Origin: a virus
Taxonomy: Duplodnaviria > Caudoviricetes
Direction: 5' to 3' (one strand)
Virus record (IMG/VR): IMGVR_UViG_3300027754_004594
Coordinates: 1 to 54,551 of that record
DNA: 54,551 bases
Shown here: positions 16,101-52,425 of the stretch, in pieces
Numbering within the stretch: position 1 is the first letter of the stretch
Layout: every line of letters begins with the position of its first letter
The notes under the pieces: model-generated
Databases searched by the model: none
What the model saw: only the letters and a program-made list of their open reading frames with translations
What the model was told of the DNA's origin: nothing
Program-made: the position numbers and the translations under genes

Positions 16101-17017
16101 TTCATTAATCCTCTTGGGTTTCTGTCTAAAAATTCATTTTTCCATTTTGGGGAGATTACAAAAGTTGATCCTTCTGGAACAATTTTCCCATTGATACCGC
16201 CGCCGCAAACATGTTCAGAGATACTGAAGTCGGAAATGCTAACCATTGGAAACTCTTTTGAGATATCTCCATCAATAGCTTGAATATAAAGCTCTCCGTA
16301 TTTTGATATTGCGCTAGTCATCCACCCATCTGAAGCGGTCTTCCTTGCGTCGCGAGTCATTCCTTTGTGAAAAGATCTATCAATCTTTTTCCAAAAATCT
16401 CCCCTTGGCACAATGTCGTGATCTTCGAGATAGGAAATTGCTATTTTAAGTCTTTTCCAATTAATAATCATACAACCACAACTATTGCTGACGCCTTGAA
16501 TATTAATATTGCCGTTTTCCGTGCTTATGTCAAATGGTTTATATAGATATTCTCTTGAGTCTAAATCTTTACCAGTTACTTCTACCATTATTTTTGGAAA
16601 TGTATTGTGAGTCTGGTTTCGATTATACATGTCTGGATGATCTGTTCCGGCGATAGCCAAAGTATTTGGGCAGGCGTTGAAAACCGAAACGCAGTCTTTA
16701 AGCCAGTCTTTTCTCCAAATGTAATCTGATTCAATTACGCAGGCAATATCCAATTCGTCGTTTTGACGTATTAAATTAAATATTCTTTCAAAGGAATAAC
16801 CGACTCCATAATTGCACCCGTGAATTAAAAGATTGATTGGAAATTTTTTAGAAGAGCATGATAAATCAAGAAGGGAGGATTTTAACTCCTTTTCTGATCC
16901 ATCATCTATTATCCAAACTTCATTTGGGGAAATTTCCGTATTTGCAAATAAGGAATTAATGCTTTGACTAAGAATTTGTGGACGATTAAAAGTGAGAATG
17001 TAAAATGAAATATTCAT
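16097..17017 (-). CDS. Glycosyltransferase family 2
   Basis: LTFNRP, IIDDGS, IESD. Confidence 0.8.
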   Translation of the reverse strand: MNISFYILTFNRPQILSQSINSLFANTEISPNEVWIIDDGSEKELKSSLLDLSCSSKKFPINLLIHGCNYGVGYSFERIFNLIRQNDELDIACVIESDYIWRKDWLKDCVSVFNACPNTLAIAGTDHPDMYNRNQTHNTFPKIMVEVTGKDLDSREYLYKPFDISTENGNINIQGVSNSCGCMIINWKRLKIAISYLEDHDIVPRGDFWKKIDRSFHKGMTRDARKTASDGWMTSAISKYGELYIQAIDGDISKEFPMVSISDFSISEHVCGGGINGKIVPEGSTFVISPKWKNEFLDRNPRGLMK

Positions 17018-18252
17018 ACTATTTTAATAGATGGCATTGGTATAATAAATTTTCCCTTGTAGTCTTGATTATTTTTAATAATCGTATCCGACATATTCCA
17101 AACGGATACTATGCAAAAATCTGTTGGATTTTCTTGGAAAAATTTCTTGCTGACAATCGGTATTTTAAATCCTGGGGAATATTTCCCTTGTTTGAGTGGC
17201 GAATCTTCAACAACGTATTTAATTATGGAACTGTTTAATTTAAAGACTTTGCTAAATAAAGTAAATTTAGCAGGGCACCCATAACAACAAATAGTTTTAT
17301 TATTTTCAATTGCTTCTTTTAAGATGCATTGAATTGCATCTGATAAATCTTTGATTTTTTTATCAAACTCTACATATGTCTGGTCGTCGTAAAGACCAAA
17401 CGACTCTTCTGAAGAAAGAAACTCGTAGACAGAGCTTTCGATTGGTATTGATTTATTACCTTGTCTTTTCGCAAAAATTCTAAAAGACCCTCCCTGAGTA
17501 GATACTCTTTGTATGGAGAAAATCTCTAATTGGTAATTATTTAAATACTTGATAAGGGGTTTGATGCCGTAGTATTGAAGATGCTCATGGTATACTTGAT
17601 CAAAATATAATCCCTTAATCGTATCGAGAAGGTAAGCGTTCTCGAAAATAAAAATACCATCATCTGTGAGGAGTTGCAATACCCCCTTAGTCATGCTGTC
17701 AATTTCTGCGACGTGAGCGAATACGTTATTCGCGCATATCACACTCATCTTCCCGTTTTTTTTCCCAATGTCTCTAGCGGTCTCTTCATTAAAAAAATTA
17801 TTTATAATCTTAGCCCCAAACCCTTTAGATCTCTCCGCTATATTCGAAGCAGGGTCTACGCCGTAAAGATTAATTAAACCCAGCCTAAGGAACTCCCTTA
17901 ATAAGATTCCGTCATTAGATCCAATCTCTAAGACGCTCGAGGACTCCCCCAGCCCCAGCTTTAAACAAACTGTAGATGCGTATTCAGAAAAGTGTTTAAT
18001 TAAACTCGGAGAGTCTGAACTAGCGTAAGAATAATTTGAAAATAAAATTTTTGGATCAACAGTCTCTTTCAGTTGGACATGCCCGCACTCGTCGCACTTA
18101 ACGACAGTAAGTGGGTATTGGTTTTCCAATTCTTGCTTCTCTGACGGGTAAGAATTTGCAAGCGGGGTTGACCCAAAATCAATAACAGTCTTAATCTTTT
18201 CACTCTTACAAAGTCTGCAATGGGTGATATCTTGATAATTTTTATTAGTCAT
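17014..18252 (-). CDS. NDP-hexose C-methyltransferase (second paralogue)
   Basis: CRLC, TPLAN, CDECGHVQL, EIGSNDG, ANNVFAH, YHEH, QGGS, YGCPAK. Confidence 0.9.
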   Translation of the reverse strand: MTNKNYQDITHCRLCKSEKIKTVIDFGSTPLANSYPSEKQELENQYPLTVVKCDECGHVQLKETVDPKILFSNYSYASSDSPSLIKHFSEYASTVCLKLGLGESSSVLEIGSNDGILLREFLRLGLINLYGVDPASNIAERSKGFGAKIINNFFNEETARDIGKKNGKMSVICANNVFAHVAEIDSMTKGVLQLLTDDGIFIFENAYLLDTIKGLYFDQVYHEHLQYYGIKPLIKYLNNYQLEIFSIQRVSTQGGSFRIFAKRQGNKSIPIESSVYEFLSSEESFGLYDDQTYVEFDKKIKDLSDAIQCILKEAIENNKTICCYGCPAKFTLFSKVFKLNSSIIKYVVEDSPLKQGKYSPGFKIPIVSKKFFQENPTDFCIVSVWNMSDTIIKNNQDYKGKFIIPMPSIKIV

Positions 18253-19024
18253 AGCTTAAGATTGGTCTAGAGACGTTGTATTTTAAATAAAAGCTATCGT
18301 TTAATTTTAAACAATTATTTAATTCATCCCACTCGTAAGAACAGGGTCCATATCTTAAAGCTTGAAAGCGTAATTTTCTTTGTAGATACTCTTTCGTGCC
18401 GACCCAGCTATAGTGCTTCGGAAAAACGAGAGCTCTAGGGATAGTCAAGGATGAACATTCGATATCTTTTTTTCCATTATCGTATTCTACGAGTTCGTCT
18501 CGATAAAATTTTTTTAATCCTTTGTTTCTATTAACAAACCAAGCTCTAGGAACAATGAAATCATCAACCCATGTAGAGTAGTTGATGCAATAATTTTTGA
18601 AATTAACTTTAAAATAATCTACTAAATTGTTTCGTTCAACAAATTTAATAAACTTTTTAATTTCTTCAATTTCCCACAGTTCGTCAACATTCACCATTAT
18701 GAGCAAATCTACGCCGTGCTTTTTGAGCTGCGTTAAGTTATTCGTCCACATATCGTATTCTTTTTGTGGTGAATCGTAAATTATCAAATCGTCAATTTTG
18801 CCAGCCTCTTGCATTTCTCTTGCCAATTCGCAAGTTCCGTCTGTCGAGTAAATCGGGAAACCCAACTTGTGGGTCTCATCGAAACAGCCATGACTAAAAC
18901 AAATTTTTATATCTGAAATTTCTGGACATAAAGACTTGTCGTTTTTAATCTCATTCCACGGATCGAAACATCTCGATAAAAGATCTTTAGACTCGTAGCC
19001 AATTGAGGTGATTCCAATTTTCAT
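18245..19024 (-). CDS. Putative GT-A fold glycosyltransferase
   Basis: STDGT, VNVDE, HYSW; cluster context. Confidence 0.6.
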   Translation of the reverse strand: MKIGITSIGYESKDLLSRCFDPWNEIKNDKSLCPEISDIKICFSHGCFDETHKLGFPIYSTDGTCELAREMQEAGKIDDLIIYDSPQKEYDMWTNNLTQLKKHGVDLLIMVNVDELWEIEEIKKFIKFVERNNLVDYFKVNFKNYCINYSTWVDDFIVPRAWFVNRNKGLKKFYRDELVEYDNGKKDIECSSLTIPRALVFPKHYSWVGTKEYLQRKLRFQALRYGPCSYEWDELNNCLKLNDSFYLKYNVSRPILSYD

Positions 19025-19026
19025 CT

Positions 19027-19947
19027 CTAGATTATGATATTGGAAGCGTTCCTATCTGACGCAAGTTTTACTCGAGAAAAATTATTTTTCAAATCTTGAG
19101 TAATTGATTCTGGAGATCCTGAAAATTTAAAATTAAATATTCTGCAAAATTTATCACAAGAAATGGCAAAATCATAAACTTTAGATGCAGACTGTTGAGC
19201 CTCAATGACCTTAATTTTAACTCCAAGAACTTCCGCCGTTTTCCTTCCTATAGTCTCGACGTTAGAGTTGAATGAAGCTAAATTGTAAACGCCTCTCTTA
19301 TTGAAGTTTCCAGTCTGGATAATCAGCTCCATCGCCCGACATAAGTCTTTAATGTCGAGGATCGGTCTTCTTACCGTGGGGTTCGATATCACCACCTCTT
19401 GATTCGCTTGAGCAGAGTAGAACATTGCATTTATCATAATGTCGTTCCTGACGTGAGGAGAGAAACCGTTAACTGTTCCAAACCTAAGTCCATAATAATT
19501 AATCTTATCAAAAATTCTAATATAATGATCAATTTCCGACTTAGATAAGTCGTAAAAACTTCCAGCCACATACTCTTGGCAGTCTTCTGAAACGATGTTG
19601 CGATTAACGTTACCGTAAACGCTTGAACTGCTAGCGTAAATAAACTTTTGCTTTTCAGAAATCTTGGTCATTAAATCAACGAAATACTGAACATTATTTC
19701 GGAAACACCCTATTAAATTCGACTCGCACATCTTAACGCTAGAATGCCCCGCCAGCAATATGACGTCAGAAAATTTAGAGAGGTATTCTTTAGTTAAGTT
19801 TTTAAAATTTTCTTTTAAGTTTAGAACTTCGGGGTTGCCAAATATCTCTAAGTCTACTGAGGTGATATCCATCCCTTTTTCTTTTAGATATCCATAGACT
19901 CGACTTCCGATGTAGCCGCAGCCGCCTAATAATAGAACTTTTTGCAT
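19027..19947 (-). CDS. NAD-dependent epimerase/dehydratase (likely start MQKVLL at 19947)
   Basis: GGCGYIG, YASSSSVYG, YDLSK, LRFGTV. Confidence 0.88.
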   Translation of the reverse strand: MQKVLLLGGCGYIGSRVYGYLKEKGMDITSVDLEIFGNPEVLNLKENFKNLTKEYLSKFSDVILLAGHSSVKMCESNLIGCFRNNVQYFVDLMTKISEKQKFIYASSSSVYGNVNRNIVSEDCQEYVAGSFYDLSKSEIDHYIRIFDKINYYGLRFGTVNGFSPHVRNDIMINAMFYSAQANQEVVISNPTVRRPILDIKDLCRAMELIIQTGNFNKRGVYNLASFNSNVETIGRKTAEVLGVKIKVIEAQQSASKVYDFAISCDKFCRIFNFKFSGSPESITQDLKNNFSRVKLASDRNASNIII

Positions 19948-19948
19948 A

Positions 19949-20860
19949 TTAAAATTTAAAATAAAGGATCTCGTTCCATTTATTATATCCACTTTCAATG
20001 AATTGAAGAATAATTTTCCTATCTACCATAGCCGTTTGTGGGCATGTTAAATTATGATAAACTAAACTAGCGACGTTTTTTGCAGCGGTCTGCATCGGAA
20101 CGCATTCCTCATAATCTTCTTTCCACCTCGACATCCACAGGATATTTTGAAATTTAGGATCTAAGATCAGCCTTGGAATCCCCAAGTGGTAAGCTAAGTG
20201 ACTAGGCCCATTGCATGAGAATATCCCATAAGAACTTTTCTTCAGAAGGTCTAGCGAATCATTAAAACTCAACACTTGATCTATAACAACGTTTTTAAGA
20301 AAAGAAACTGAAAAATCTGATTGATACTCTATCTGTTTTACCCATTTTTTAATAAACGGAAAGTATATAGTATAATCAGGGAGTTTCTCAGCTAATGAAT
20401 TAAGAAGTAATGGAATGTTTTTATACATATGATCTGCTCCATTACTGCTTAACCCGCAGTAAATGATCTTTTCTTTGATGAGCGGGTTGTCGGCGAAAAC
20501 TCTTGTTTTTTTTATTATTTGTGGAGTTAGTCCGTATTCGTTATATTTAAAACTCAACGGATTCAAGAAGAGGAGATCGGGAACATTAAATGTGACGGAG
20601 TTTGAATTATATTTATTTTTTATATAATTTAAAACTTTAAGATCGTGTTCGACAGCGTTGTGATTGGCGACGCTTTCGTCTACATTCTCCAAATTAAAAA
20701 TTTTTCCGGCGACGTGATTCAATGGGTTAAAGACTTCTGGTCTGGCAGATATTAAATTTTTATGAAGCACTCCTTGCCGCGTTAGTAGATAGGAGATTTG
20801 CAAAGATAGGCAGCAGTCTCCGATACCGTGTCCGCCAATATTTAAAAGGGCTTCACTCAC
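19949..20860 (-). CDS. GT9 (heptosyltransferase)-like glycosyltransferase
   Basis: GHGIGD, NGPSHLAYHLGIP. Confidence 0.65.
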   Translation of the reverse strand: MSEALLNIGGHGIGDCCLSLQISYLLTRQGVLHKNLISARPEVFNPLNHVAGKIFNLENVDESVANHNAVEHDLKVLNYIKNKYNSNSVTFNVPDLLFLNPLSFKYNEYGLTPQIIKKTRVFADNPLIKEKIIYCGLSSNGADHMYKNIPLLLNSLAEKLPDYTIYFPFIKKWVKQIEYQSDFSVSFLKNVVIDQVLSFNDSLDLLKKSSYGIFSCNGPSHLAYHLGIPRLILDPKFQNILWMSRWKEDYEECVPMQTAAKNVASLVYHNLTCPQTAMVDRKIILQFIESGYNKWNEILYFKF

Positions 20861-21408
20861 GTCGATAGTAGTTGCATTATAGCGTTAGAGATATCTTCGG
20901 GTTTATGTTGGTTGATATACTCTTGAGCCGCATCGGGATTGTAGAACGGAGACAATCCAGCCATGTCGGGGATAAAAATTTTATACATGTTTAAATCTCC
21001 AAAATACGGCCTACAGTTATTAAAATTGATACTTCCACCGAATAAGATTACCATGGGCTTTCTATAATGGTCAGAGAGGTGCATGCAAAAACTATCAATC
21101 CCCAACAAAAGGCTACATTTATTTATTATGAAAGCTGTTTGACTAAAGGATGAAGTTTGTATTTTTAAGCAATGATTATAACTTATATCAGATGAGTCTA
21201 TTTGAATTATTGATATTTCTTTAGACTGCAAGAATGGATGAATTAAATCAATAACCTCTTGCCATTTATTATAAAATTTTCCTAAGCCTTTCGAGTGGGG
21301 ATTGAATACAATAAACTTTTCTGGTAAATTAGGACAATGACATTCTTTAATTAATGGTTTTTCAATTTTAAGCCCGCAAGACAAAGCGTATATTTCAACA
21401 ATGTGCAT
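20857..21408 (-). CDS. GT9-like C-terminal domain protein
   Basis: FIVFNP, WQEVI, GIDSFCMHL...PMVILFG. Confidence 0.7.
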   Translation of the reverse strand: MHIVEIYALSCGLKIEKPLIKECHCPNLPEKFIVFNPHSKGLGKFYNKWQEVIDLIHPFLQSKEISIIQIDSSDISYNHCLKIQTSSFSQTAFIINKCSLLLGIDSFCMHLSDHYRKPMVILFGGSINFNNCRPYFGDLNMYKIFIPDMAGLSPFYNPDAAQEYINQHKPEDISNAIMQLLST

Positions 21409-21410
21409 AG

Positions 21411-21737
21411 TCAGTATTTAAGATCCAAAGCAATTCTATCTTTACCGTTATGCGTATAAGTTATTATTCTTTGAGTTTGGATATGTGGAATTAGGCAAAT
21501 TTCAAACAGTCTAGGGCGCGGCCCAATCCCTTCCATAGCAAATATATTATCCATTTCCGGCTTGTAGTCAATAATAAAATCTATATAAGGATTGCCTTCA
21601 AGTATGCATTGATACATTGGGTTGGTTGCAAAATATATCTTGTAATCAGGATACGTTTCTCTTAAACTCCTAAGAAGAGATGTGCAAAGTAAAACGTCAC
21701 CAGCTCCCTCGGGCATTACAAAGAGCAGATTGTTCAT
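21411..21737 (-). CDS. GT9-like N-terminal domain protein
   Basis: GAGDVLL...LRETYPDYKIYF...ILEGNPYID. Confidence 0.7.
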   Translation of the reverse strand: MNNLLFVMPEGAGDVLLCTSLLRSLRETYPDYKIYFATNPMYQCILEGNPYIDFIIDYKPEMDNIFAMEGIGPRPRLFEICLIPHIQTQRIITYTHNGKDRIALDLKY

Positions 21738-22117
21738 CTCGAATTGAAAAGACCCAAGAAATCTTTTAAAGAGTTTGGTTTTTTATTAATAGATACTTGC
21801 TCCGCCACTGGGCGGTCTTCCAATTCTATACGGTCTTTTCGAAAAGATGTTGATTGGTATCTTTTAACGTCGTCAATGAATTTCTTCCCAGCTCGCGAGA
21901 TAAACCAAGCCAAAGAATTTAATCCTATCATTCCCTTCATGGACATGAAAAACTCAAAATTGTATTTTTTAACAAGGCTCGTTGCGAGCTTCATCTCTCT
22001 CGGCCAGTCAATTTTATCATAATTTTTTTCTATGATGAAAGCCGCAATGATTTGTTGCTGTTTCGAGATAGCCCTCTTCTTTAAGATTTTCGCAACTTTG
22101 GTTTTTTTAGGCTCCAT
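21734..22117 (-). CDS. Hypothetical protein
   Basis: Overlaps both neighbours in the same orientation. Confidence 0.6.
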   Translation of the reverse strand: MEPKKTKVAKILKKRAISKQQQIIAAFIIEKNYDKIDWPREMKLATSLVKKYNFEFFMSMKGMIGLNSLAWFISRAGKKFIDDVKRYQSTSFRKDRIELEDRPVAEQVSINKKPNSLKDFLGLFNSR

Positions 22118-23213
22118 GTTTAATGGTGAGGGGTCTTTCTTCAGAAGTCAAGATGCTTATATCATTTTTAACCATTCTTGAGACGAGTTCTTGGAAAGAG
22201 ATTTTGGGTTGCCAGTCAAGTTCTTTCCTGGCTAAAGAGGAGTCTCCTAACAAAAGATCTACTTCCGCCGGTCTGTAAAATTTAGGATTTATTTTAACTA
22301 AAACAGAAGACTTTACGTCGTGTTCTTCAACTAAATAGTTAGCAATAGAGAACTCTTCGCTTGACCCGTTTCCATGCCAACAGCCTTCAATATTTGCGTT
22401 TTTAAACGCTAAGTTAACGAACTCTCTGATTGAATGACTTTCGTTACTAGAGAGGATATAGTTTTTAATTGGAGTTTTTTGATTAAGCATCTTCCAAATC
22501 CCCTCTACGAAATCTTCAGCGTGACTCCAGTCTCTTTTAACGTCTAGGTTGCCAAGTTCTATCGGACTGAATGAGTGTTTATTTTTTATAGCTTGATTGA
22601 TTCGAGCAACTCCTTTTGTGATTTTTCTCGTCACGAACTCTTCCCCTCGTCTTTCTGATTCGTAATTAAAACACCAACATTGAATAGCGTATAAGTTATA
22701 GCTTTCTTTATATACTTTAACAATTTGTCTTGCTGCGACTTTTGACGCTCCGTAAGGACTTCTGGAAGAGGGCGGGTGATTTTCGTCTTGAGGCGTATAC
22801 TTAACGTCCCCGAACTCCTCGGAAGATCCAAAATTTAAATACTTTGTGTGTGGGGAGCATTTTCTTATAGACTCCAACTGCCTTAGAACACCGAGACAAT
22901 TATATTCAAAGTGTTGTTCTGGGCATTGCCAACTTGTTCCCACGAAGCTATTGGCGGCAGAATTAATAAAATAATTTGGTTTATATTTTTCAATTAATGA
23001 GGATATAGAGTGGGAATCTCCTAAATCCATTATCTCTAAAATAAAATTAGAATTTACTATATGCTTAATATTCTGAGTATTGGGGACGCTTAATCTTCTT
23101 GTAGCTCCGATGACTCGAATGCCTTTTTTTAATAAAAAATCAGCAAGATAAGAGCCCATTTGTCCCGTTACTCCGGTGACTATTGCGACTTCATCTTGTT
23201 TAGTTTTATCCAT
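22107..23213 (-). CDS. gmd: GDP-mannose 4,6-dehydratase
   Basis: TGVTGQMGSYL, SSEEFG, PYGASK, EFVTRKIT, LGNLD.KRDW, FYRPAEVDLLLGD. Confidence 0.93.
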   Translation of the reverse strand: MDKTKQDEVAIVTGVTGQMGSYLADFLLKKGIRVIGATRRLSVPNTQNIKHIVNSNFILEIMDLGDSHSISSLIEKYKPNYFINSAANSFVGTSWQCPEQHFEYNCLGVLRQLESIRKCSPHTKYLNFGSSEEFGDVKYTPQDENHPPSSRSPYGASKVAARQIVKVYKESYNLYAIQCWCFNYESERRGEEFVTRKITKGVARINQAIKNKHSFSPIELGNLDVKRDWSHAEDFVEGIWKMLNQKTPIKNYILSSNESHSIREFVNLAFKNANIEGCWHGNGSSEEFSIANYLVEEHDVKSSVLVKINPKFYRPAEVDLLLGDSSLARKELDWQPKISFQELVSRMVKNDISILTSEERPLTIKHGA

Positions 23214-23241
23214 ATTATTGATTTTTAAATTTTACTAGTGA

Positions 23242-23973
23242 CTATAGCATTAATAATTCACTAGATGAATATATTTTAGGTAAGTCCAGAACGATTTCAA
23301 GAATATTATTTTCTTTACAGAATACGGATTCTGAGGGTTCTAGGTTTCCGGCTTTTCGATCTCCGCTATTAAAAAGGGAGATGGTTGAATTGGGATTTTC
23401 TAGTTTAATTTTTGCTAAAGTGTTGACTTGAGCTTTGTCCGAATCTATAGAGATTATGCATTCGTCAACAGCTTTTAAATTTTGCATTATTTGTTGTCTA
23501 TGAGCTTCATTCATGAACGGTTTGCTTTTCTTTAAGCCTACCTGTAGGTCGCTATTTACTATAACTATCAAATACTTACATCGTTCTTTAGCCTCGTTAA
23601 GGTATTGTAAGTGCCCTAAATGTAGTGGGTTAAAGTATCCAGAAGCTATTCCAATTTCTGATTTGTTTTTTATTTTAGCTCGCCAATCTAAGGCGTTTAT
23701 AGCCTTGTCGTCGATGAAGAGATCGACATTGGGTTTACCTTCATCAACTAGCTCATGATACTTAACACCCCAATTGCTTAGTTGGCTAATCGTAAGGTCG
23801 TGATAATCTCGGCCAGATCCGCGACCTCTAGCTGTAAATATGATTATATAATGCCCGTGTTGATGTAGAATATTTATATTATCTACAACATCTTGGAACG
23901 GAAGACTTTTAGCATACTCCCCGCTGTTAGTTAAGGAGCAAATTGTTCCGTCTATATCAAACGCATATCTCAC
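23242..23973 (-). CDS. Fusion of a HAD-like phosphatase and a cytidylyltransferase-fold (HldC/RfaE-II-like) nucleotidyltransferase
   Basis: FDIDGT...FTAR...FIDDKA, then SGYFNPLHLGH...VNSD...GD...SSS. Confidence 0.8.
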   Translation of the reverse strand: MRYAFDIDGTICSLTNSGEYAKSLPFQDVVDNINILHQHGHYIIIFTARGRGSGRDYHDLTISQLSNWGVKYHELVDEGKPNVDLFIDDKAINALDWRAKIKNKSEIGIASGYFNPLHLGHLQYLNEAKERCKYLIVIVNSDLQVGLKKSKPFMNEAHRQQIMQNLKAVDECIISIDSDKAQVNTLAKIKLENPNSTISLFNSGDRKAGNLEPSESVFCKENNILEIVLDLPKIYSSSELLML

Positions 23974-24704
23974 AACGACACGACTCCTTTTAATCGAACA
24001 ACTTTAGACCCACACTCGTTGGCGAACGCAATCGCAGACCGGACATCCTCAGAAAGCCCGTATTTATAAATAAGACCGGCAAAAAAAGAATCTCCAGCGC
24101 CAGACACGTCTCTTACCTCAACCTTTTCAACTGGAAAATTCTCCCCGTTAAAAAAACATCCTTCTGATCCTTTTGTGTAGATTGTTTTATTAAATAAATT
24201 TTTAGGCATTGTGTTTTTTGATCTATCGAATTCTTCTTCGTTTATTTTTATATATTTGCAATTATTAGCCCATTCTCCGAGTCTTTTTTTGCTATCTAAA
24301 AATACATTTTTGTGATTGTTACATATATATTCCACGTCTTCTTCTTTAAGGAATCCTTTATCATAATCTGAAATAGCAATTAAATCATAATCTAAAGATA
24401 GCTTGCTAACATCGCATCTTTGCACGTCGCCCTCCCCGGCGTCAACCCTAATAAACATGTGATTAGTTTGGCTGTGCATGTATCTTGTTTTTGTGTAGCT
24501 TTGCCAATTGGGGTTAGTGACGATGTCGCAATGAACATTTAAAGAAGCAATATTTCTTTGAAGGTTTTTAGCCATGCCCGGATTCTGAGTCTTGGATAAG
24601 ATGTTCAGAACAGGGACGGGGACGTCTGGGCAAAGTCTGCTCACGGAACAGTAGACAAACACGTCCCGGCACGAGTCTCCTATTACAAGAATCCTTTTAC
24701 TCAT
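23970..24704 (-). CDS. PfkB-family kinase (HldA/RfaE-I heptose-kinase-like)
   Basis: VIGD, RLCPDVPVPV, KTR, SDYDKG, DVSGAGD. Confidence 0.85.
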   Translation of the reverse strand: MSKRILVIGDSCRDVFVYCSVSRLCPDVPVPVLNILSKTQNPGMAKNLQRNIASLNVHCDIVTNPNWQSYTKTRYMHSQTNHMFIRVDAGEGDVQRCDVSKLSLDYDLIAISDYDKGFLKEEDVEYICNNHKNVFLDSKKRLGEWANNCKYIKINEEEFDRSKNTMPKNLFNKTIYTKGSEGCFFNGENFPVEKVEVRDVSGAGDSFFAGLIYKYGLSEDVRSAIAFANECGSKVVRLKGVVSL

Positions 24705-25489
24705 TGGTTGATTGCTTGCTTGAAAAACGTAACAACCTCAGAACCTTGCTGAGAGATATTTTTAAATTTAAGAATCTTCATCACCCCATCGCGAATATAT
24801 TGATTAATAAACATCACGTCTCTTGTGTGATCCTCAAAGTCTCCCACGATACAGAAAGTCGGGATTCGCAACATAGAAGACTGAGTTTTGTAACAGCTAT
24901 CTGTCCCCAAAAACTTAGAACAGTATTGTACGCAGGCTAAGCAGCAAACAACATCGTCAAAAGAACAAAATTTAACATTATCACTTTCTTTTAGTCCGTA
25001 ATTAGATAATTCTTTTTCAGAACCAAAGATTAGATAATTAAAATCTTCACTAATTATCTCACTGACGATTGAAGAAGGAATGAATTTCTGCGGCAGGTTG
25101 AACGACGAATAGACGTTAGTAGAGAATTGGCTTCCGAATGGGTGAATTCCTATGATTTTTTTCTTTTCCTTAAAAGAATTTACTAAGCGTTCAGCTATCA
25201 AAACAGCTTCATTTTTAAAAATTAAATTATTATAAAAAAACCTAGGGCAAACTTCAAAAGGCTTCTCCTCTTTGGAGTCGGCACAAGAAAGAATTTCATC
25301 CGTCTGACTGTCGTGATCAGCAATTGTTTCAAAATTATATATTTTTATATTTTCAACACCGAATTCATTGAAAAATTCTTTAGCTTTGCTGAAATGGGTG
25401 TGAATATAATACTCTCGATCCAAGTGAGTCATTGCAAAAGGGATAGTTTGTAAAAAGTCCCCAATTCCACCTCTTATGTATACTTTCAT
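24701..25489 (-). CDS. GT9-like glycosyltransferase
   Basis: RGGIGD, IGIHPFGS, FLGTDS. Confidence 0.65.
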   Translation of the reverse strand: MKVYIRGGIGDFLQTIPFAMTHLDREYYIHTHFSKAKEFFNEFGVENIKIYNFETIADHDSQTDEILSCADSKEEKPFEVCPRFFYNNLIFKNEAVLIAERLVNSFKEKKKIIGIHPFGSQFSTNVYSSFNLPQKFIPSSIVSEIISEDFNYLIFGSEKELSNYGLKESDNVKFCSFDDVVCCLACVQYCSKFLGTDSCYKTQSSMLRIPTFCIVGDFEDHTRDVMFINQYIRDGVMKILKFKNISQQGSEVVTFFKQAINQ

Positions 25490-32259: not shown

Positions 32260-32667
32260 TTATTCTTTTAAAGATTTTGGATCAACCTTAGAAGCAAGAA
32301 AAATTAAATTTTTTAAATCTTTTTCCGTGATGCCCCTGCTATTACACTTATCATCTTCATTGTTGAGAGTCTCGCACGCGGAATTAATAACGCTTGCGAT
32401 CCCAGCGGCGGTCACGCTATTGATTTCTAACGTCTGAGAAAAAGTCGTCAAGGGCTTGAAAAGCGTCCAATACATTTGACCGTCGATAATGCAAGACCTT
32501 AAAAACCCTGAGATTTCCATTTCCTTGAGAGCGCACGTTAAAGACGCATCCTCTGCCGGTTCATTTTCTGATACTAAAATTACCTCTTTTCTATTCTTTT
32601 TTAAATTAAAAGAAGTGTGGGTGAAAAAGTATTCATCCAATAATCCGTAAGAGTCTAAAATTGTCAT
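32260..32667 (-). CDS. Hypothetical protein (likely start MTILDS at 32667)
   Basis: ORF; TTGACA-N17-AACATT ends 7 nt before this ATG. Confidence 0.65.
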   Translation of the reverse strand: MTILDSYGLLDEYFFTHTSFNLKKNRKEVILVSENEPAEDASLTCALKEMEISGFLRSCIIDGQMYWTLFKPLTTFSQTLEINSVTAAGIASVINSACETLNNEDDKCNSRGITEKDLKNLIFLASKVDPKSLKE

Positions 32668-32674
32668 TCTTTTT

Positions 32675-32740
32675 AATGTTAGCCTTGAATATAAAAATGT
32701 CAAATCTACTCTTGACTTTCTTATTGTTAGGCATCATCCT
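32675..32740. promoter_or_regulatory. Back-to-back divergent sigma70-like promoters
   Basis: Minus: TTGACA(32703-32698)-N17-AACATT; plus: TTGACT(32712)-N17-CATCCT. Confidence 0.55.
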
Positions 32741-32745
32741 GAGAC

Positions 32746-33102
32746 GTGAGCCTTGAGACATTCTTAAACAGCGCGTCAATTGCCGCCGGCTGTGCGGCAT
32801 TTTCTTTTCTGCTTTACAAAACGGACTTCATCGCGGAATACGCAAGACTATTTAAACTTAATCGTTTATTTAAAATAGAAGAGTATTATTGTGAAAAAAT
32901 TCTCAACGATGAAGATTTTTCTTACTTTGATTTCTTAAATAAAAGATATCACAATTTCCTATCTAAATTGGCTTCTTGCCCTTACTGCCTTGGATTTTGG
33001 CTTTGTATTATTTTCAATAGCTTTGAATTAAAAGCTTTGTTTTCTTATTATGTATATATCGTAGCGTATAAACTAATAACTATTAAAATAAAATGGAACT
33101 AG
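32746..33102 (+). CDS. Membrane protein, DUF1360-like
   Basis: KLASCPYCLGFW plus hydrophobic segments. Confidence 0.6.
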   Translation: MSLETFLNSASIAAGCAAFSFLLYKTDFIAEYARLFKLNRLFKIEEYYCEKILNDEDFSYFDFLNKRYHNFLSKLASCPYCLGFWLCIIFNSFELKALFSYYVYIVAYKLITIKIKWN

Positions 33103-33398
33103 AAATAAAAGGATTTATTGAATTTTGTAAGGCTTTGTCAAAGCATCCCGATCTCATAATTAAAACACCAAGCCTTCCAGATGTTATAATATTTTGTCAT
33201 TCTTCAATTGGTAATTGTAATTGCGGCAACAAAGAACTCTCAAAAAGAGTTGAATTTGAAAAAACATTTCACGAAAAGATGACAAAATTACCCCCAGAAG
33301 TATTAAAAGAACTCGGAACAGCATTTGATCCTGAGAATACTTATGAAATTATTAACGTGTCTTTCCCTGAAAATGAAGGTTTAGTTAAACTTAAATAG
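33093..33398 (+). CDS. Hypothetical protein
   Basis: Overlaps the upstream stop; contains CNCG. Confidence 0.6.
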   Translation: MELEIKGFIEFCKALSKHPDLIIKTPSLPDVIIFCHSSIGNCNCGNKELSKRVEFEKTFHEKMTKLPPEVLKELGTAFDPENTYEIINVSFPENEGLVKLK

Positions 33399-33405
33399 AA
33401 AAAAT

Positions 33406-33528
33406 ATGTTATTTGAGCAAATGGAATTTGATTTTATGTTGGCTCAGTCGCCAAAAGACGCAATTCCGTCGAGATTTGAGCAAATGGAGTTTGATTTTGA
33501 GGCTCCCGCTTTAGAATCTGTCGGCTAA
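33406..33528 (+). CDS. 40-aa peptide with two FEQMEFDF repeats (sliding-clamp-binding-motif-like)
   Basis: Manual translation MLFEQMEFDFMLAQSPKDAIPSRFEQMEFDFEAPALESVG; fills the gap between two genes; the repeat copies differ only by a synonymous change. Confidence 0.75.
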   Translation: MLFEQMEFDFMLAQSPKDAIPSRFEQMEFDFEAPALESVG

Positions 33529-33532
33529 GCGT

Positions 33533-34534
33533 ATGCAAAAAGCGAAACTAGAGCCCGTTCAGTTATCGCTGGTTTCTCTATTCGCTGGGGCAGGCGGCAT
33601 GGATATCGGATTTGAAAAAGCTGGCTTCAAAACGGTATGGGCAAATGAATATGACCCAACCATTTCTCCCTCATATCAAAAATACTTTCCGAATACCCAG
33701 TTTGATGGGCGTTCAATCCGTAACATTCCAGATAGCGATTTGCCTGAAACAGTTACTGGCGTCATCGGTGGACCCCCGTGTCAATCGTGGTCAGAAGCAG
33801 GGGCAAGGCGTGGCATTGCTGATCCTAGAGGTGAATTATTTTTTGAATACTTGAGAATAATTAAAATTACTAAACCAAAATTCTTTGTTGCTGAAAATGT
33901 TCATGGCTTAATTCATTCACGTAACATAGAATCGTTTAAACAAATAATAAAATTGTTTGAAAAAGAAAAGTATGTTGTTAGTTGGAAGTTGTTAAAAGCC
34001 AGTGATTACGGCGTGCCGCAGGATAGAGAGCGAGTGTTTATAGTTGGCTATCATCAATCATTAAATAAAACTTTTAAATTCCCTGCCCCGCTTAAAACCA
34101 AAAAAACCTTGCGCGACGCCATTGGAGACTTGGCTGAGCTGGAAATCGGGTCAACTAAAAAGGTTAAAAACCATGAGTTTATGGATAGCGGGTATTCTCC
34201 CATATTCCTCTCACGCAATCGCGTGAGGAGTTGGGACGAGCAGTCCTATACAATACTGGCTACAGATAGGCACATACCATTCCACCCCCAAGCTCCTAAA
34301 ATGGTGAAGGTGGCAGGTAAAGAGTTGCGAGAATTTGCCAAAGGACACGAAAGCAAATACAGACGCCTAACTATCCGCGAGTGTGCGAGAATCCAAACTT
34401 TCCCTGATAACTATGAATTTGTTTACGCCCACATGCGTAATGCCTACAAGATGATAGGAAATGCTGTGCCTGTTGATTTAGCCTATTGGGTGGCAAAAAC
34501 GATTAAAGAAGACTTGTCAGGTGAGTTCTCTTAA
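33533..34534 (+). CDS. C5-cytosine DNA methyltransferase, M.HaeIII-like
   Basis: SLFAGAGG, GGPPCQSWS, AENV, QDRERVF, SRNRVR, RECARIQTFP, GNAVP. Confidence 0.93.
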   Translation: MQKAKLEPVQLSLVSLFAGAGGMDIGFEKAGFKTVWANEYDPTISPSYQKYFPNTQFDGRSIRNIPDSDLPETVTGVIGGPPCQSWSEAGARRGIADPRGELFFEYLRIIKITKPKFFVAENVHGLIHSRNIESFKQIIKLFEKEKYVVSWKLLKASDYGVPQDRERVFIVGYHQSLNKTFKFPAPLKTKKTLRDAIGDLAELEIGSTKKVKNHEFMDSGYSPIFLSRNRVRSWDEQSYTILATDRHIPFHPQAPKMVKVAGKELREFAKGHESKYRRLTIRECARIQTFPDNYEFVYAHMRNAYKMIGNAVPVDLAYWVAKTIKEDLSGEFS

Positions 34535-34538
34535 ATTA

Positions 34539-34546
34539 AGTGTAAT
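34539..34546 (+). promoter_or_regulatory. AGTGTAAT candidate late promoter
   Basis: 9 nt before ATG 34556; the motif recurs upstream of several starts. Confidence 0.6.
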
Positions 34547-34555
34547 TGAATTTAT

Positions 34556-34756
34556 ATGCCAATTCCTAAGCTAGATAAAGGTGAAGCTGAAAAAGATTTT
34601 ATGTCGAAATGCATGACTGATAACTCGATGCAAAAAGATTTTCCGAATCAAAACCAAAGAGTCGCCATCTGCATGAGCCAGCTCAAACGAAAAAAGTCCG
34701 AAGCTAGTGGTTTGGATTGGGAAGATGTGGCTGCCGAACCCTTTATAGTCTATTAA
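34556..34756 (+). CDS. Small phage protein (MPIPK...DFMSKCM...QRVAIC type)
   Basis: Pattern I recall from phage head-associated genes; preceded by AGTGTAAT. Confidence 0.7.
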   Translation: MPIPKLDKGEAEKDFMSKCMTDNSMQKDFPNQNQRVAICMSQLKRKKSEASGLDWEDVAAEPFIVY

Positions 34757-34777
34757 TAAATAACACACAAATACAAT

Positions 34778-36247
34778 ATGCCAAGTACAATACCATACGA
34801 TCCAACATTAGTAATGGGTAACCTAGTAGACCCAAAAGACATTGACAACTTAAAAGTTATTTCCGCTGCGGAAAGACCGGTTGACGTCGCTCAAGATACG
34901 TTAAATGATACTATCAGAGCAAAACAACAACTCCAAATGACGTATACTGAATTAGCAAATTTAGGATTGAGTCAAGCACAATTAACGGCACTTGACACGC
35001 AAATGACTGCTCTTAATACAACTTTGGGTCTAAATGCCGGTGATTATGCTAAAGCGGTATTAGACTCTCAAACGGCGATAGCTGCTGGCAAAAAAAACAT
35101 TGCTACACTTAGTGAACAACCAGAAAGTCCAGTTGATTGGAATAAGACAGAAATTAAGAAGATTGAATTGAGTTCAAACACAATGAATATGGATGTTCAA
35201 TACATTCGTAATGAAGATGAAGATGATGGAAGCAACGCTCATGCTGATAATGTCGCTGCGAGTGTTTCGGCAGCGGTAAGCTGTGTTTTCGGATTCAAAG
35301 CAGCTGCGAGTGTCGCAACCAATGTTACTAATACAACACTAGCAACTACATCAGCACATAATATTGTTGGAACTTTAGTTATTACCGCCGCTTGTACACA
35401 TAAGATGGCAACTGAATTAGCTCCTTTTATTTTGGATCCGGAAAAAGCAATTGATGCGTGGAATCAAACATATCCATCTGATATTATTCCCAGTGATCCC
35501 ACTGCAATGGCTGCATTAATCAATGTGGACACTAAGAATAAACTACATATATTGTCAGGTAAAACTATAGGAAGTTCTTTTGTTGGTCTGGTTCACTTCG
35601 AACAACATGAAAACACCAACTCTACCCAAAATTCGAATGCATCAACTAAAGCTGCAAATGCTTCATTTGAATATGGTGGATGGTTTGCGGATTATGAAGG
35701 TAAGTTTGGCGTTACCAAAGATGTTAGTGATAATGTTAAAAAAATGTTTAGCACAACAAATGTGACATCACATTGTTCTTTAATTACAATGGGAATTATT
35801 CCTAGTATTAAAAGCAATCTTATAAAAACAACGGTTAATACATTAAAACCAGATGCAAAAGAAGTGATGGGTCAATTGGCGGCTATTCAAGGTGCGACTG
35901 ATTCAACTGTTAAGACAATTGGATCTTCCGCATCTGACGCTAAAGTTGGTAGTCAATACATCGAATTAAACAATAGTTATATAAGCAATGTCGTTTCTAA
36001 CTTGGGGGTTATTGAAAATAATAATAATCAAGTCATTGATACCAATTCTTTAATGACTGCTTTTGATGACTATGTTCAACAAGCAACCAAAGGTGAGGAT
36101 GGAGTCCCAATCAACTTCTTCATACGAGAAATTACTAAATCTGCGATTGCTAAAGCGTGGATGAAGAAATTCAATCCAAGAGCAAATTGGCAATTTTCTT
36201 CAGGCGACGACAGTGAAACAGGCACTGATAAACCTAAGTCTGCTTAA
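34778..36247 (+). CDS. Hypothetical 489-aa protein (N-terminal coiled coil, Ser/Thr/Ala-rich core)
   Basis: Long ORF followed by a terminator. Confidence 0.85.
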   Translation: MPSTIPYDPTLVMGNLVDPKDIDNLKVISAAERPVDVAQDTLNDTIRAKQQLQMTYTELANLGLSQAQLTALDTQMTALNTTLGLNAGDYAKAVLDSQTAIAAGKKNIATLSEQPESPVDWNKTEIKKIELSSNTMNMDVQYIRNEDEDDGSNAHADNVAASVSAAVSCVFGFKAAASVATNVTNTTLATTSAHNIVGTLVITAACTHKMATELAPFILDPEKAIDAWNQTYPSDIIPSDPTAMAALINVDTKNKLHILSGKTIGSSFVGLVHFEQHENTNSTQNSNASTKAANASFEYGGWFADYEGKFGVTKDVSDNVKKMFSTTNVTSHCSLITMGIIPSIKSNLIKTTVNTLKPDAKEVMGQLAAIQGATDSTVKTIGSSASDAKVGSQYIELNNSYISNVVSNLGVIENNNNQVIDTNSLMTAFDDYVQQATKGEDGVPINFFIREITKSAIAKAWMKKFNPRANWQFSSGDDSETGTDKPKSA

Positions 36248-36355: not shown

Positions 36356-36553
36356 TTAACCCCTTCGACCAGCGTTCCCAGAGTTGCTTATGCTGCCTGT
36401 GTTTCCTGTGTTTCCCACTACCTTAGGCTTGGTGGGCGGAGTCGTTTTCGACTTGCCTGTGTTGCCGGTTGATCCAGCGTTTCCGGCATTACCGGCGTTC
36501 CCCGCTGCCGGGCTCTTTGCCGCGTAGCGAACCTTAAGTTTTTGATTTCTCAT
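36356..36553 (-). CDS. Small basic protein with GNA/GNT tripeptide repeats
   Basis: GNAGNAGNAGSTGNTG...GNTGNTG...NSGNAG; codons vary while the amino-acid repeat is kept. Confidence 0.6.
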   Translation of the reverse strand: MRNQKLKVRYAAKSPAAGNAGNAGNAGSTGNTGKSKTTPPTKPKVVGNTGNTGSISNSGNAGRRG

Positions 36554-38088: not shown

Positions 38089-38126
38089 ATCTGTAATTAC
38101 ACTAGATTTTAGCTACTTGAAATTAA

Positions 38127-42174: not shown

Positions 42175-42238
42175 ATTAGTCATTACACTGATTTTAAATT
42201 TTAGTTAGAGTTTCGACAGGATTTGTGTATTAGTAGAT

Positions 42239-42382
42239 ATGGAAGCTGGAAAAGGATCCAAACCAAGAAATTGCTTTAGCCGAAGTTTTAAAAAAAATTA
42301 CACCCAAATTCTTTGGGAGACGAAGAAAAAAAACAAATCAAATGAGAAAAAAATTAACAAAACTAATAACCCAAGAGGATGA
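42239..42382 (+). CDS. 47-aa basic peptide (GKGSKPR...NY..I.W type)
   Basis: Manual translation MEAGKGSKPRNCFSRSFKKNYTQILWETKKK...; TGTGTATT 7 nt upstream. Confidence 0.6.
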   Translation: MEAGKGSKPRNCFSRSFKKNYTQILWETKKKNKSNEKKINKTNNPRG

Positions 42383-42887
42383 TCTTTTAGTAATTGATAG
42401 TGGCCCTTGGATAAGGATCAGCGCGAAATGGGATAACATTATCAATCATACTCCTTTTGGCTGGTGTTTCTATAATAAGATCGCCAGTCTTAAAATATCA
42501 ATAAAATCATTTTTTCAAAAAATTATTTACGGAGTTAGTGATGAAGAATGTCGTAATTTAAATGATGAAATTGCAAAATTTATTCTCAAAAGACTTTTGC
42601 GTTTTAAGAAAATAGAGAGATTTAATTCTCCGATTTTTAGCGAAGAGGACTCTTTAGGAAAGGAATCCGCGCAGAAATGGGACGACGTCTTAGACGAGAT
42701 GATTTTTGCTTTTGATTTCACCTGCCACCCTCTTAAGTATAATAATATCCCCGGCACGCCGTTTGAAAAGGCTGGCAACACTCCTGAAGCTTGGGATGAT
42801 TACTTCAAGCAAGAGTTGGAGTTGGAGATCCGGCAAGCAAAGGGATTAGCTTTATTTGCTAAACATTTTGATTCTTTGTGGGCTTAA
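42342..42887 (+). CDS. Hypothetical phage protein
   Basis: KWDDVLDEMIFAF...GLALFAKHFDSLW pattern. Confidence 0.7.
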   Translation: MRKKLTKLITQEDDLLVIDSGPWIRISAKWDNIINHTPFGWCFYNKIASLKISIKSFFQKIIYGVSDEECRNLNDEIAKFILKRLLRFKKIERFNSPIFSEEDSLGKESAQKWDDVLDEMIFAFDFTCHPLKYNNIPGTPFEKAGNTPEAWDDYFKQELELEIRQAKGLALFAKHFDSLWA

Positions 42888-44678: not shown

Positions 44679-45015
44679 ATCTTCTATTACACTTGACTTC
44701 TGGATTAAGAAGCCTCAAAGTTTTCTTGATTCAAGGCTGTCGGAGTGTAAAGAACCGCCTGATAAAGGAGGTCTTTGACTCTATTAATTGAAATTATACG
44801 ATAATCTTCAAAGCACATGCACTTTAAAAAAACAAAATTTTCTTTTATTACAGTCTGAGTAGAGCAAGATGAGCAATATATTTCCATATAATTATATTAA
44901 AAGACGGATCAGCGAAGACGATCCGGTTGCTTTCTGGCGACAAAATTGTAACAAATGTTATAAGCTGTCTATTGTAAGAAATCTTTTTGGAAAAAGCTGA
45001 GTCAATATACAGATA

Positions 45016-46817: not shown

Positions 46818-46833
46818 TAGTGTAATTTATAGA

Positions 46834-48447: not shown

Positions 48448-48524
48448 ACTCTGATAGCTTAATTGGATAAAGCCTCGAATTTCTAATTCGGCGACTGTGG
48501 GTTCAAGTCCCACTCGGAGTACCA
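48448..48524 (+). tRNA. tRNA-Arg(UCU)
   Basis: Acceptor ACTCTGA/TCGGAGT, anticodon loop TTTCTAA, T-arm GTGGG-TTCAAGT-CCCAC, encoded CCA. Confidence 0.88.
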
Positions 48525-48560
48525 TTTTTGTTAGAAAGATCTTTGAAATTTAGTCTAAAT

Positions 48561-48648
48561 GCAAGTGTGGCGGAATGGTTTACGCAAGGCGCTTAAGACG
48601 CCTCGGGCTTTAACTCCCATGCACGTTCGAGTCGTGCCACTTGCACCA
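48561..48648 (+). tRNA. tRNA-Leu(UAA)
   Basis: GCAAGTG/CACTTGC, AGGCG-CTTAAGA-CGCCT, long variable arm, TTCGAGT, ACCA. Confidence 0.93.
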
Positions 48649-48655
48649 ATTTCGC

Positions 48656-48736
48656 TGTTGAGGGTCGTTCCCTCAACACATATTGTATGGGGTAAGTCTG
48701 CGAAAACTTTCCCGCTAGACTCTAGCAACATACAGT
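48656..48736 (+). ncRNA. Structured spacer RNA (9-bp hairpin plus three-way junction)
   Basis: TGTTGAGGG/CCCTCAACA; ATTGTATG/CATACAGT enclosing GGGTAAGT/ACTTTCCC and GCTAG/CTAGC. Confidence 0.4.
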
Positions 48737-48745
48737 CAATTTAAT

Positions 48746-48839
48746 GCTCCGATAGCATAGCGGTCAAGTGCGACAATCTTATACATTGGAAGCTCTAGAT
48801 TTGAGCAAGACGTAGGTTCGAATCCTACTCGGAGTACCA
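48746..48839 (+). tRNA. tRNA with UAU anticodon (nominally Ile) and a 22-nt variable region
   Basis: GCTCCGA/TCGGAGT, D-stem GCAT/GTGC, loop CTTATAC, V-arm GCTC-TAGATTT-GAGC, GTAGG-TTCGAAT-CCTAC, ACCA. Confidence 0.88.
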
Positions 48840-49499: not shown

Positions 49500-49608
49500 A
49501 GCTTAATTAAATTACACTTATTAATATAATATTATTGAGCTACGCAAAAATTAAAAAAAATATTGACATATTGAAATTTTTGAGAGATATAGATGATACC
49601 AATTTTTT

Positions 49609-51646: not shown

Positions 51647-51659
51647 TCAAGAAAATCAA

Positions 51660-52091: not shown

Positions 52092-52092
52092 T

Positions 52093-52422: not shown

Positions 52423-52425
52423 AGC

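Follow-up and report, generated by a model that had tools for sequence, protein, structure and literature searches.

A 40-amino-acid peptide encoded at positions 33406..33528 (plus strand) of the phage record IMGVR_UViG_3300027754_004594 carries the hexapeptide QMEFDF twice; the whole stretch of 54,551 bases that was analyzed is called the window below. On sequence grounds, QMEFDF is a Bacteroidota-style clamp-binding hexapeptide, differing from the published consensus only by the phenylalanine at its fourth position. As judged from a modeled complex, the peptide probably plugs both pockets of the host sliding clamp ring (beta clamp, DnaN), and we give slightly better than even chances to the claim that both motifs bind the clamp in a cleft-dependent manner. 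The peptide gene and its parts are as follows.

33406..33528, plus strand: gene for the 40-amino-acid peptide (open reading frame [ORF] listing, composition, gene packing and homologues)
33411..33435, plus strand: first copy of a 25-nucleotide (nt) DNA repeat, encoding FEQMEFDF (direct-repeat search)
33418..33435, plus strand: motif 1, QMEFDF, residues 5-10, at the extreme N-terminus (Q[MI]EF[DN]F in 5 of 5 homologues covering it)
33436..33480, plus strand: linker between the hexapeptides, residues 11-25 (ungapped in 6 of 6 alignment rows)
33474..33498, plus strand: second copy of the 25-nt repeat, with one synonymous difference (direct-repeat search)
33481..33498, plus strand: motif 2, QMEFDF, residues 26-31 (FEQMEFDF invariant in 6 of 6 rows)

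A first-pass annotation, made from the sequence alone, had described this ORF as a 40-residue peptide with two in-frame 25-nt repeats differing by one synonymous GAA/GAG change and with a 15-residue linker between its two motifs. The ORF listing of the window reproduced the ATG-start ORF and its translation (MLFEQMEFDFMLAQSPKDAIPSRFEQMEFDFEAPALESVG) exactly, and the coordinates of the repeats, their single difference and the 15 residues separating the hexapeptides were all confirmed. The two direct repeats are 96% identical and are spaced 63 nt, or 21 codons, from start to start. Their sole mismatch (A33426 versus G33489) falls on the third base of codons 7 and 28, both of which encode glutamate. 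When a 24-nt version of the repeat was searched with up to 3 mismatches, it occurred at only these two places in the window, and matches were obtained in 0 of 100 dinucleotide-preserving shuffles. The peptide is acidic (nine Asp/Glu and two Lys/Arg residues, with six Phe), and no domain match was returned by Pfam and PHROG scans. Its ORF is packed between two neighbors: 7 nt separate it from the stop of a 101-amino-acid ORF (33093-33398), and another 4 nt lie between its own stop and position 33533, where the ATG of a DNA methyltransferase gene begins. Like other gene starts of this phage, the upstream region (…aaatagaaaaaat-ATG) is A-rich and lacks a Shine-Dalgarno sequence.

Relatives of the peptide were sought in several collections. 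A word-indexed search of 5.8 billion proteins recovered four peptide clusters of 35 to 53 amino acids, while a full profile search of 1.84 billion representatives at an E value of up to 0.001 returned six proteins. Three of these belong to the peptide family, including a new 48-amino-acid member (P0005), and the other three are weak matches in long repeat proteins. Four other predicted proteins (35 to 53 amino acids) retain both Q[MI]EF[DN]F motifs and a 13-residue linker. In the six-row peptide alignment, the rows of which include P0001, P0002, P0003, P0004 and P0005, residues E7, F8 and F10 and the stretch FEQMEFDF (24-31) are invariant. The first-pass annotation had tied its proposal to the conservation of the motif glutamines and phenylalanines in homologues, and these residues are indeed conserved: Q5 is present in 5 of 5 rows covering it, Q26 in 6 of 6, and F10 and F31 are invariant in every row that covers them. 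Variation in motif 1 is limited to Q[MI]EF[DN]F, with isoleucine at position 2 in P0005. The 13 residues between F10 and F24 align without gaps in all six rows, with substitutions at 10 positions (11, 13-16, 18-21 and 23) and with L12, K17 and S22 invariant. The C-terminal tail is variable, having acquired an in-frame 13-amino-acid insertion in P0004 and having been replaced in P0005 (8-amino-acid in-frame indel); EAP...ALESVG is conserved in 5 of 6 rows. Conserved motifs and a constant linker length, together with a varying linker and tail, are the pattern expected of a translated short-linear-motif protein, and ORF 33406-33528 looks like a real gene on this pattern.

Alternatively, the ORF might be a chance frame left by a recent 63-nt duplication and have no function. 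The repeats are nearly identical and the gene is missing from most relatives, as such an origin would have it. However, the start, the two motifs with their spacing and the open frame persist in homologues with as little as 55% identity, and divergence affects the sequence beyond the 25-nt cores but spares the cores themselves. Furthermore, of the 24 public runs listed, 20, from 17 studies, contain the 2.1-kb region around the gene; their labels are freshwater or lake water, with one marine exception. We therefore regard a chance frame as very improbable.

The searches also defined the limits of the family. No fused or longer forms of the peptide were found among proteins of 94 to 2000 amino acids, and none of 338 pattern matches in a metagenome scan was a relative. 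A tblastn search, which the first-pass annotation had proposed for assessing motif conservation, found no relative in 50,697 phage records, and an alignment search of four near-complete related phages likewise found none. Two genomic contig matches were rejected as homologues, being chance FEQMEFD strings inside an epimerase and GyrA. Among other candidate functions, a structured RNA or riboswitch was dropped on an ordinary RNA fold and the lack of an Rfam match (values below), a precursor of a ribosomally synthesized and posttranslationally modified peptide because no modifying enzymes lie beside the gene, a mimic of the single-stranded DNA-binding protein (SSB) tail because the motifs are not C-terminal, and an N-degron because a Met-Leu N-terminus is not processed.

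The assignment of QMEFDF to the clamp-binding motifs draws mainly on host DNA polymerase IV (Pol IV, DinB). In Escherichia coli, six-residue clamp motifs include the C-terminal QVELEF of DnaE and QLSLPL of Hda. The canonical forms are given as Q-phi-x-[L/M]-[F/L] and Q-phi-x-[L/M]-x-[F/L], in which the glutamine is important; the motif of Pol IV is placed in the C-terminal tail, and motif flanks are described as mostly acidic (PMC11139829). The Pol IV of Pedobacter psychrotolerans ends in …ETESNQLEFDF-stop, and a second Bacteroidota DinB (G285) also ends in QLEFDF. In a survey of 61 Bacteroidota genomes with the Pedobacter DinB as the query, 34 matched at an E value of up to 1e-50 and 30 loci were examined. 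Each of the 21 loci that reach 45% identity has a motif at the C-terminus or no more than 13 residues away from it. Seventeen of these motifs have the form Q[LM]x[LFI]x[FL], three are QLxLF and one is QLELDLF. Phenylalanine occupies both positions 4 and 6 in 7 of the 21 orthologues (QLEFDF, QLQFDF, QLKFDF, QLKFAF in two, QLKFTF and QLSFTF). The other hexapeptides are QLELEF (three), QMELEF (two), QLELAL, QLGLGL, QLEIPF, QLKIPF and QLMLPF, and the remaining motifs are QLKLF (two), QLDLFG and QLELDLF. The other nine DinB-like loci (33 to 37% identity) are longer and paralogue-like and lack such an end.

DinB tails were also compared, over their last 40 residues, from the phylum of a Eubacterium genome. 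The F-x-F form was present in 1 of 21 tails in this sample; of 29 loci in all, a locus interrupted by an internal stop and the seven weakest ones were set aside. Most of the 21 tails carry a QLSLF-type pentapeptide, with an extra domain after it. Matches to the exact string Q-x-E-F-D-F-stop are rare, at 5 in 301 Bacteroidota genomes (two of them DinB) versus 3 for the reversed control, and the motif class was established from the DinB tails instead. Because these tails carry the same hexapeptide type, QMEFDF can be placed, by sequence comparison, among the clamp motifs of the Bacteroidota, and the F-x-F hexapeptide of this phylum appears to be a new form that goes beyond the published consensus.

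At the remaining positions, the peptide motifs agree with known ligands. Position 1 is glutamine in both (Q5 and Q26), as in other clamp-binding motifs, and position 2, most often leucine in such ligands, is hydrophobic, being methionine in both, as it is in two Bacteroidota DinB tails (QMELEF). The last position is phenylalanine (F10 and F31), which fits the F/L requirement. The terminal or disordered, acidic setting fits as well: motif 1 begins at residue 5, acidic residues outnumber basic ones by 9 to 2, and the predicted local distance difference test (pLDDT) values in the modeled complex are 55-59. The absence of Shine-Dalgarno sequences, together with the motif type, leads us to infer that the host belongs to the Bacteroidota.

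Structure prediction with DnaN, a check proposed in the first-pass annotation, was carried out with two copies of the Pedobacter clamp (24-row Bacteroidota alignment, Pedobacter first) and the peptide (five-row alignment). The complex scored 0.62 (0.62, 0.61 and 0.62 in the individual runs), while the best of three controls reached 0.01 and a control with an unrelated protein in place of DnaN gave 0.00. At least 76% of contacts are shared between the runs. In the model, peptide residues 2-10 and 12 contact the first DnaN copy and residues 23-31 and 33 contact the second, and the DnaN residues contacted in both copies are 172, 174-175, 177, 242-244, 246-247, 275-280, 321, 345, 347, 364 and 366-371. 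The contacts with the lowest error are those of motif 2 with the second copy at residues 172, 174, 175, 177, 247, 366 and 367. Subsite I of the clamp is described as comprising Arg152, Thr172, His175, Leu177 and Pro242 (PMC11139829), and the 24 Bacteroidota DnaN sequences all have R152, T172, H175, L177, P242 and V247. The earlier suggestion that two motifs could engage the two clamp pockets is thus reproduced in the model, with one motif in each canonical cleft. The model supports, but does not prove, binding in which a single peptide spans both canonical clefts of one DnaN ring.

Phages related to that of the window place the same type of motif at protein termini. They were recognized through the replicative polymerase, which is split over three overlapping ORFs at one end of the window (3-2930, minus strand).

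3-1541, minus strand: DnaE core fragment, running off the window (PF07733, E value 5e-55)
1538-2176, minus strand: RNase T-type exonuclease, a separate overlapping ORF
2169-2930, minus strand: PHP-domain protein, a separate overlapping ORF

DnaE relatives are numerous: 120 were confirmed, 80 of which were kept, and four of them are near-complete records of 128 to 203 kb. Among cultured relatives, the DnaE of this phage is at most 32% identical to that of any phage record. The pattern Q-x-E-F-[DN]-F occurs twice in the four near-complete relatives, both times at a protein terminus, and the reversed pattern does not occur in them. A 218-amino-acid protein of one relative (phrog_11543, E value 1.5e-14; L263:874-1527, minus strand, in G001) starts with MSQQLEFDF. 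A survey of this protein covered 79 loci, 23 of them close (49 to 100% identity, including L267-L289) and 56 distant. All 23 close homologues begin with M-x(0-2)-Q-x-[EQ]-F-[DE]-F, the variants being QLEFDF (11), QLQFDF (3), QFEFDF (3), QKEFDF (3), QLEFEF (2) and QQEFEF (1), and the first 40 residues of the 56 distant ones contain no such tag. The tag is also missing from the homologue in the window itself (42342-42887, 32% identical). The codons of the tag vary synonymously (CTA/TTA/TTG, TTT/TTC, GAT/GAC and CAA/CAG), which indicates selection on the peptide and not on the DNA. In another relative, a 69-amino-acid protein without a family match (L264:1501-1707, minus strand, in G004) ends in ...KAEQFEFNF-stop.

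This codon pattern bears on a further alternative, in which the repeats act as a DNA or RNA element, or the ORF merely delivers ribosomes to the methyltransferase start, and the peptide itself has no function. The 63-nt spacing corresponds to six helical turns, and the methyltransferase gene, which starts 4 nt past the peptide stop, has no A-rich leader of its own. On the other hand, the motifs are conserved as amino acids through conservative swaps (D9N and M6I) and in-frame indels, and the tag on the 218-amino-acid protein of the relatives is kept through synonymous codon changes. The surrounding DNA offers little that would suit such an element either: Pfam and PHROG scans of the window revealed no regulator gene near the peptide gene, the RNA fold of 33380-33560 is ordinary (z score of -1.0; 31 of 200 shuffles gave a fold at least as good), and Rfam gave no match in 32600-34700 at an E value of up to 1. 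A promoter and terminator scan of 32500-34900 gave counts equal to those of shuffles, with no site between the 101-amino-acid gene and the methyltransferase gene. A role at the level of DNA or RNA, or as a mere coupling frame, is, in our judgment, improbable.

A gene for a clamp was not detected in the related phages. The beta-clamp domains PF00712 and PF02768 and the T4-type clamp domain PF02916 had no match in any of the four near-complete relatives, two of which are at least 91% complete, and no clamp loader was matched above the cutoff in these four, the one weak match scoring 16.5 bits. Lacking a detectable clamp gene, these phages should use the host clamp or none, and their gene content makes dependence on the host clamp plausible. 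In the first-pass annotation, a bridge between the clamp and the DnaE of the phage itself had been raised as a possible role of the peptide. The phage does carry its own DnaE, as the fragment at 3-1541 demonstrates, but bridging received no support: a clamp motif was absent from all 65 full-length DnaE C-termini of the relatives (about 855 amino acids for the full-length protein) and from one full-length relative DnaE (L111) subjected to a pattern search. In the other proteins of the window, loose matches to the clamp pattern occurred only inside probably folded proteins.

The string EQMEFDF was found at 20 loci in viral contigs, spread over six mixed protein families, and by itself it therefore lacks specificity. 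It stands in the acidic C-terminal tails of four unrelated phage protein families (L004, L005, L011, L013 and L017; L006; L007 and L018; L022), examples being ...PEMEQMEFDFNSDEDF-stop on a 91-amino-acid helix-turn-helix-like protein and an acidic tail on a lysine-rich 142-amino-acid protein; members of these families may likewise be phage proteins tagged for the clamp. Acidic tails rich in phenylalanine take part in other interactions as well, and the peptide motif could be directed at another hub, for instance a phage protein or a site of the SSB-tail type with acidic and aromatic residues, in which case its likeness to clamp motifs would be coincidental. The four tailed families, together with the presence of the string inside two probably folded proteins, would be in keeping with this. 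However, the same hexapeptide type occurs exactly at the clamp-motif site of Pol IV, and the control fold with an unrelated protein instead of DnaN scored 0.00. Furthermore, recognition of the SSB tail requires a free C-terminal phenylalanine, whereas both motifs of the peptide are internal or N-terminal. A hub other than the clamp therefore seems to us a poor prospect, and the clamp remains the preferred partner.

Downstream of the peptide gene lies a single methyltransferase gene.

33533..34534, plus strand: C5 cytosine DNA methyltransferase, orphan (PF00145, E value 1.9e-92)

As its start falls 4 nt past the peptide stop, the two genes are probably co-transcribed and translationally coupled. 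Over both genes the GC content is 0.44-0.46, versus 0.26-0.33 upstream. In two relatives (L028 and L029) that share the 118-amino-acid and 101-amino-acid genes, the order is 143-, 103-, 59- and 66-amino-acid genes, and the peptide and methyltransferase genes occupy the place of the 59-amino-acid gene. Both the methyltransferase and the peptide are missing from relatives in which the 489-amino-acid protein encoded at 34778-36247 has a 93% or 79% identical counterpart. Likewise, such a peptide is absent upstream of methyltransferase relatives of 81 to 91% identity on other viral contigs. Unrelated sequence flanks the methyltransferase on both sides in run X16, with breakpoints at 33538 and 34516, at the limits of the ORF. 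The methyltransferase gene thus also moves independently, in the manner of a mobile cassette of one gene. Because the peptide gene is absent both from the loci of relatives and from other methyltransferase contigs, these comparisons mark it as a rare accessory gene in a variable island.

This arrangement allows the peptide to be seen as a clamp adaptor and not an inhibitor, bound to the clamp by one or both motifs, with its tail or linker recruiting another protein to replicating DNA, for instance the C5 methyltransferase or a part of the phage replisome, much as eukaryotic DNMT1 rides on PCNA. The 4-nt distance between the two genes, their shared higher GC content and their joint replacement of the 59-amino-acid gene are in line with an adaptor, as are the EAP...ALESVG segment kept in 5 of 6 rows, the invariant linker residues L12, K17 and S22 and the placement of the same motif on a folded 218-amino-acid protein in relatives. 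However, the tail is replaced in P0005, the methyltransferase occurs without the peptide in its 81 to 91% identical relatives and with other flanks in X16, and in the modeled fold both motifs are taken up by the clamp, so that a second partner would find few conserved residues. We consider an adaptor unlikely, though less so than the alternatives discussed above.

The region was also followed in public runs, six of which are RNA libraries. One DNA run (X2) and three RNA runs were compared in detail with the window. The independent DNA run X2 yielded a 1113-nt contig across 32980-34092 with no listed difference inside the peptide ORF. Contigs from the RNA libraries, which cannot show transcription, its level or its strand, cover 33244-33418 (X17) and 33447-33642 (X15), while 33419-33446 is uncovered by contigs of the three RNA runs. 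The X15 contig bridges the peptide ORF into the methyltransferase gene, and the RNA-library contigs are compatible with co-transcription of the two.

In the interpretation that we favor, binding of both motifs to the host clamp, the product would be a 40-residue acidic and probably disordered peptide, the only conserved features of which are two hexapeptides held 21 residues apart. Each hexapeptide would enter the hydrophobic cleft of one DnaN protomer, located between its domains II and III, so that one peptide would fill both clefts of the ring and gain avidity. The replicase, Pol IV and repair proteins are described as sharing one clamp site (PMC11139829). With both clefts blocked, the host replicase, Pol IV, mismatch repair and other clients would be excluded. 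Expressed with the neighboring orphan DNA methyltransferase, the peptide would then serve in host takeover. A broader reading makes the peptide a natural "clamp staple," the smallest dedicated clamp ligand, and part of a wider, so far overlooked habit of its large clade of uncultured phages from freshwater, in which DnaE phages without a detectable clamp or clamp loader use portable QxEFDF tags copied from host polymerases. We put this forward tentatively and rate its chances somewhat below even.

Several observations weigh against this interpretation. Position 4 of the motif is phenylalanine, outside the published [L/M], in a consensus derived mostly from E. coli ligands. The family is tiny, with three clusters at 50% identity among 1.84 billion representatives, and there are relatives of this phage without the peptide gene. 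The X15 RNA-library contig carries G33478A (E25K) at a depth of 4.3. As complexes of the clamp with peptides have already been solved, the passing score of the fold may reflect memorized structures and point to likeness, not to binding. Of 157 solved complexes, 116 attain the mark used for the fold, as do 2 of 215 mismatched pairs; this calibration was made on single-chain pairs with the tool's own alignments and not on three chains with user-supplied alignments. The Pedobacter clamp in the fold is a stand-in for the host clamp, and the phage DnaK does not discriminate between hosts: with an overall identity of 58 to 64%, it is 60% identical to that of Pedobacter, 58% to that of a Eubacterium metagenome-assembled genome and at most 64% to those among 201 Bacteroidota genomes. 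Finally, potent blocking of both clefts would hamper the phage too if its own replisome relies on the host clamp, and a role as an adaptor or in timing is therefore possible.

The phage is large, uncultured and from freshwater. The 54,551-base record is estimated to be 33% complete and belongs to a large phage. Domain scans of the window identified DnaB, a primase, a RecA-like protein, ribonucleotide reductase and ThyX, and further genes encode a sigma factor, Hsp70, DnaJ and tail-fiber-like proteins; the phage-borne Hsp70 scores 856 bits. The octamer AGTGTAAT occurs 10 times in the window versus 1.9 expected, and 0 of 100 shuffles reached 10. Copies are located at 34539-34546, 46819-46826 and 54290-54297 and, on the minus strand, at 38096-38103, 42182-42189, 44686-44693 and 49511-49518, with 3 more elsewhere. 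At least 6 copies lie about 10 to 20 nt upstream of gene starts, and the octamer may be a promoter or translation signal particular to this phage. It is lacking at the peptide and methyltransferase genes. A cluster of three tRNAs (48448-48839; Arg-tct, Leu-taa and Ile-tat) reads A-ending codons throughout, matching the low GC content of the phage. An unusually long block of sugar-nucleotide, glycosyltransferase and methyltransferase genes extends over 7932-25489 (minus strand) and 49736-53472 (plus strand) and includes genes for an aminotransferase, GDP-mannose dehydratase, C-methyltransferases, epimerases and glycosyltransferases. A small Gly/Asn/Ser/Thr-repeat ORF (GNAGNAGNAGSTGNTG...) at 36356-36553 (minus strand) sits between the 66-amino-acid gene and the deoxynucleoside monophosphate kinase side, and its position is kept in L028 (931-1107, minus strand) and L029 (4731-4904, minus strand).

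Comparison with known systems separates what is familiar from what is new. The closest likeness is to the DinB of Bacteroidota, which shares a near-identical hexapeptide (QLEFDF, QMELEF, QLQFDF and QLKFDF versus QMEFDF) in an acidic, unstructured context. However, DinB has one motif at the end of an enzyme of about 360 amino acids, whereas the two motifs make up most of the 40 residues of the peptide, which has no catalytic domain. The 218-amino-acid, phrog_11543-like protein comes from the same phage family and has its motif right after the initiating methionine (MSQQLEFDF versus MLFEQMEFDF); it differs in bearing a single motif on a folded protein. Reportedly, SocB of Caulobacter and a pneumococcal toxin-antitoxin system provide toxins that target the sliding clamp, and these resemble the peptide as small proteins that block replication via DnaN. 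By description, they differ in being chromosomal modules with an antitoxin, none of which lies beside the peptide gene.

Among phage proteins, MuC of phage Mu has two clamp-binding motifs, one N-terminal and one C-terminal, both of which are needed for DnaN binding, and its overexpression is lethal through the clamp (PMC12867686). Like the peptide, this member of the Mor/MuC group is a phage protein with two clamp motifs, but it is described there as a DNA-binding transcription factor of about 140 amino acids in which the pentapeptides QHDLF and QPDLF flank a folded domain. Only 15 residues separate the motifs of the peptide where Mor/MuC proteins have a folded DNA-binding domain, and no Pfam or PHROG match was obtained. 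By sequence, the peptide is thus not a Mor/MuC member, and only the two-motif principle is held in common. Gp168 of Staphylococcus phage Twort is likewise a small phage protein aimed at the host beta clamp that arrests replication; unlike the peptide, it is described as binding the DNA channel and not the protein-binding cleft (PMC11139829).

Among the papers searched, none contained QMEFDF, EQMEFDF or QMEFNF, and the literature on phage clamp ligands yielded MuC, Gp168 and the toxins of toxin-antitoxin systems, without any peptide that stands alone with two motifs. Motifs that bind the clamp, and phage proteins bearing them, are known, and what is new is a 40-residue protein made essentially of two motifs and a spacer. 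To our knowledge, the known peptide ligands of the clamp occupy a single cleft and bind with micromolar affinity. The beta clamp is described as an essential hub and an active antibiotic target (PMC11139829), and a natural two-cleft peptide, if confirmed, would provide a template for high-avidity clamp inhibitors. If the interpretation holds, the phage would silence every host clamp client with 40 residues, and the peptide makes it testable how the clampless DnaE-type replisome of very common but uncultured lake phages handles the host clamp.

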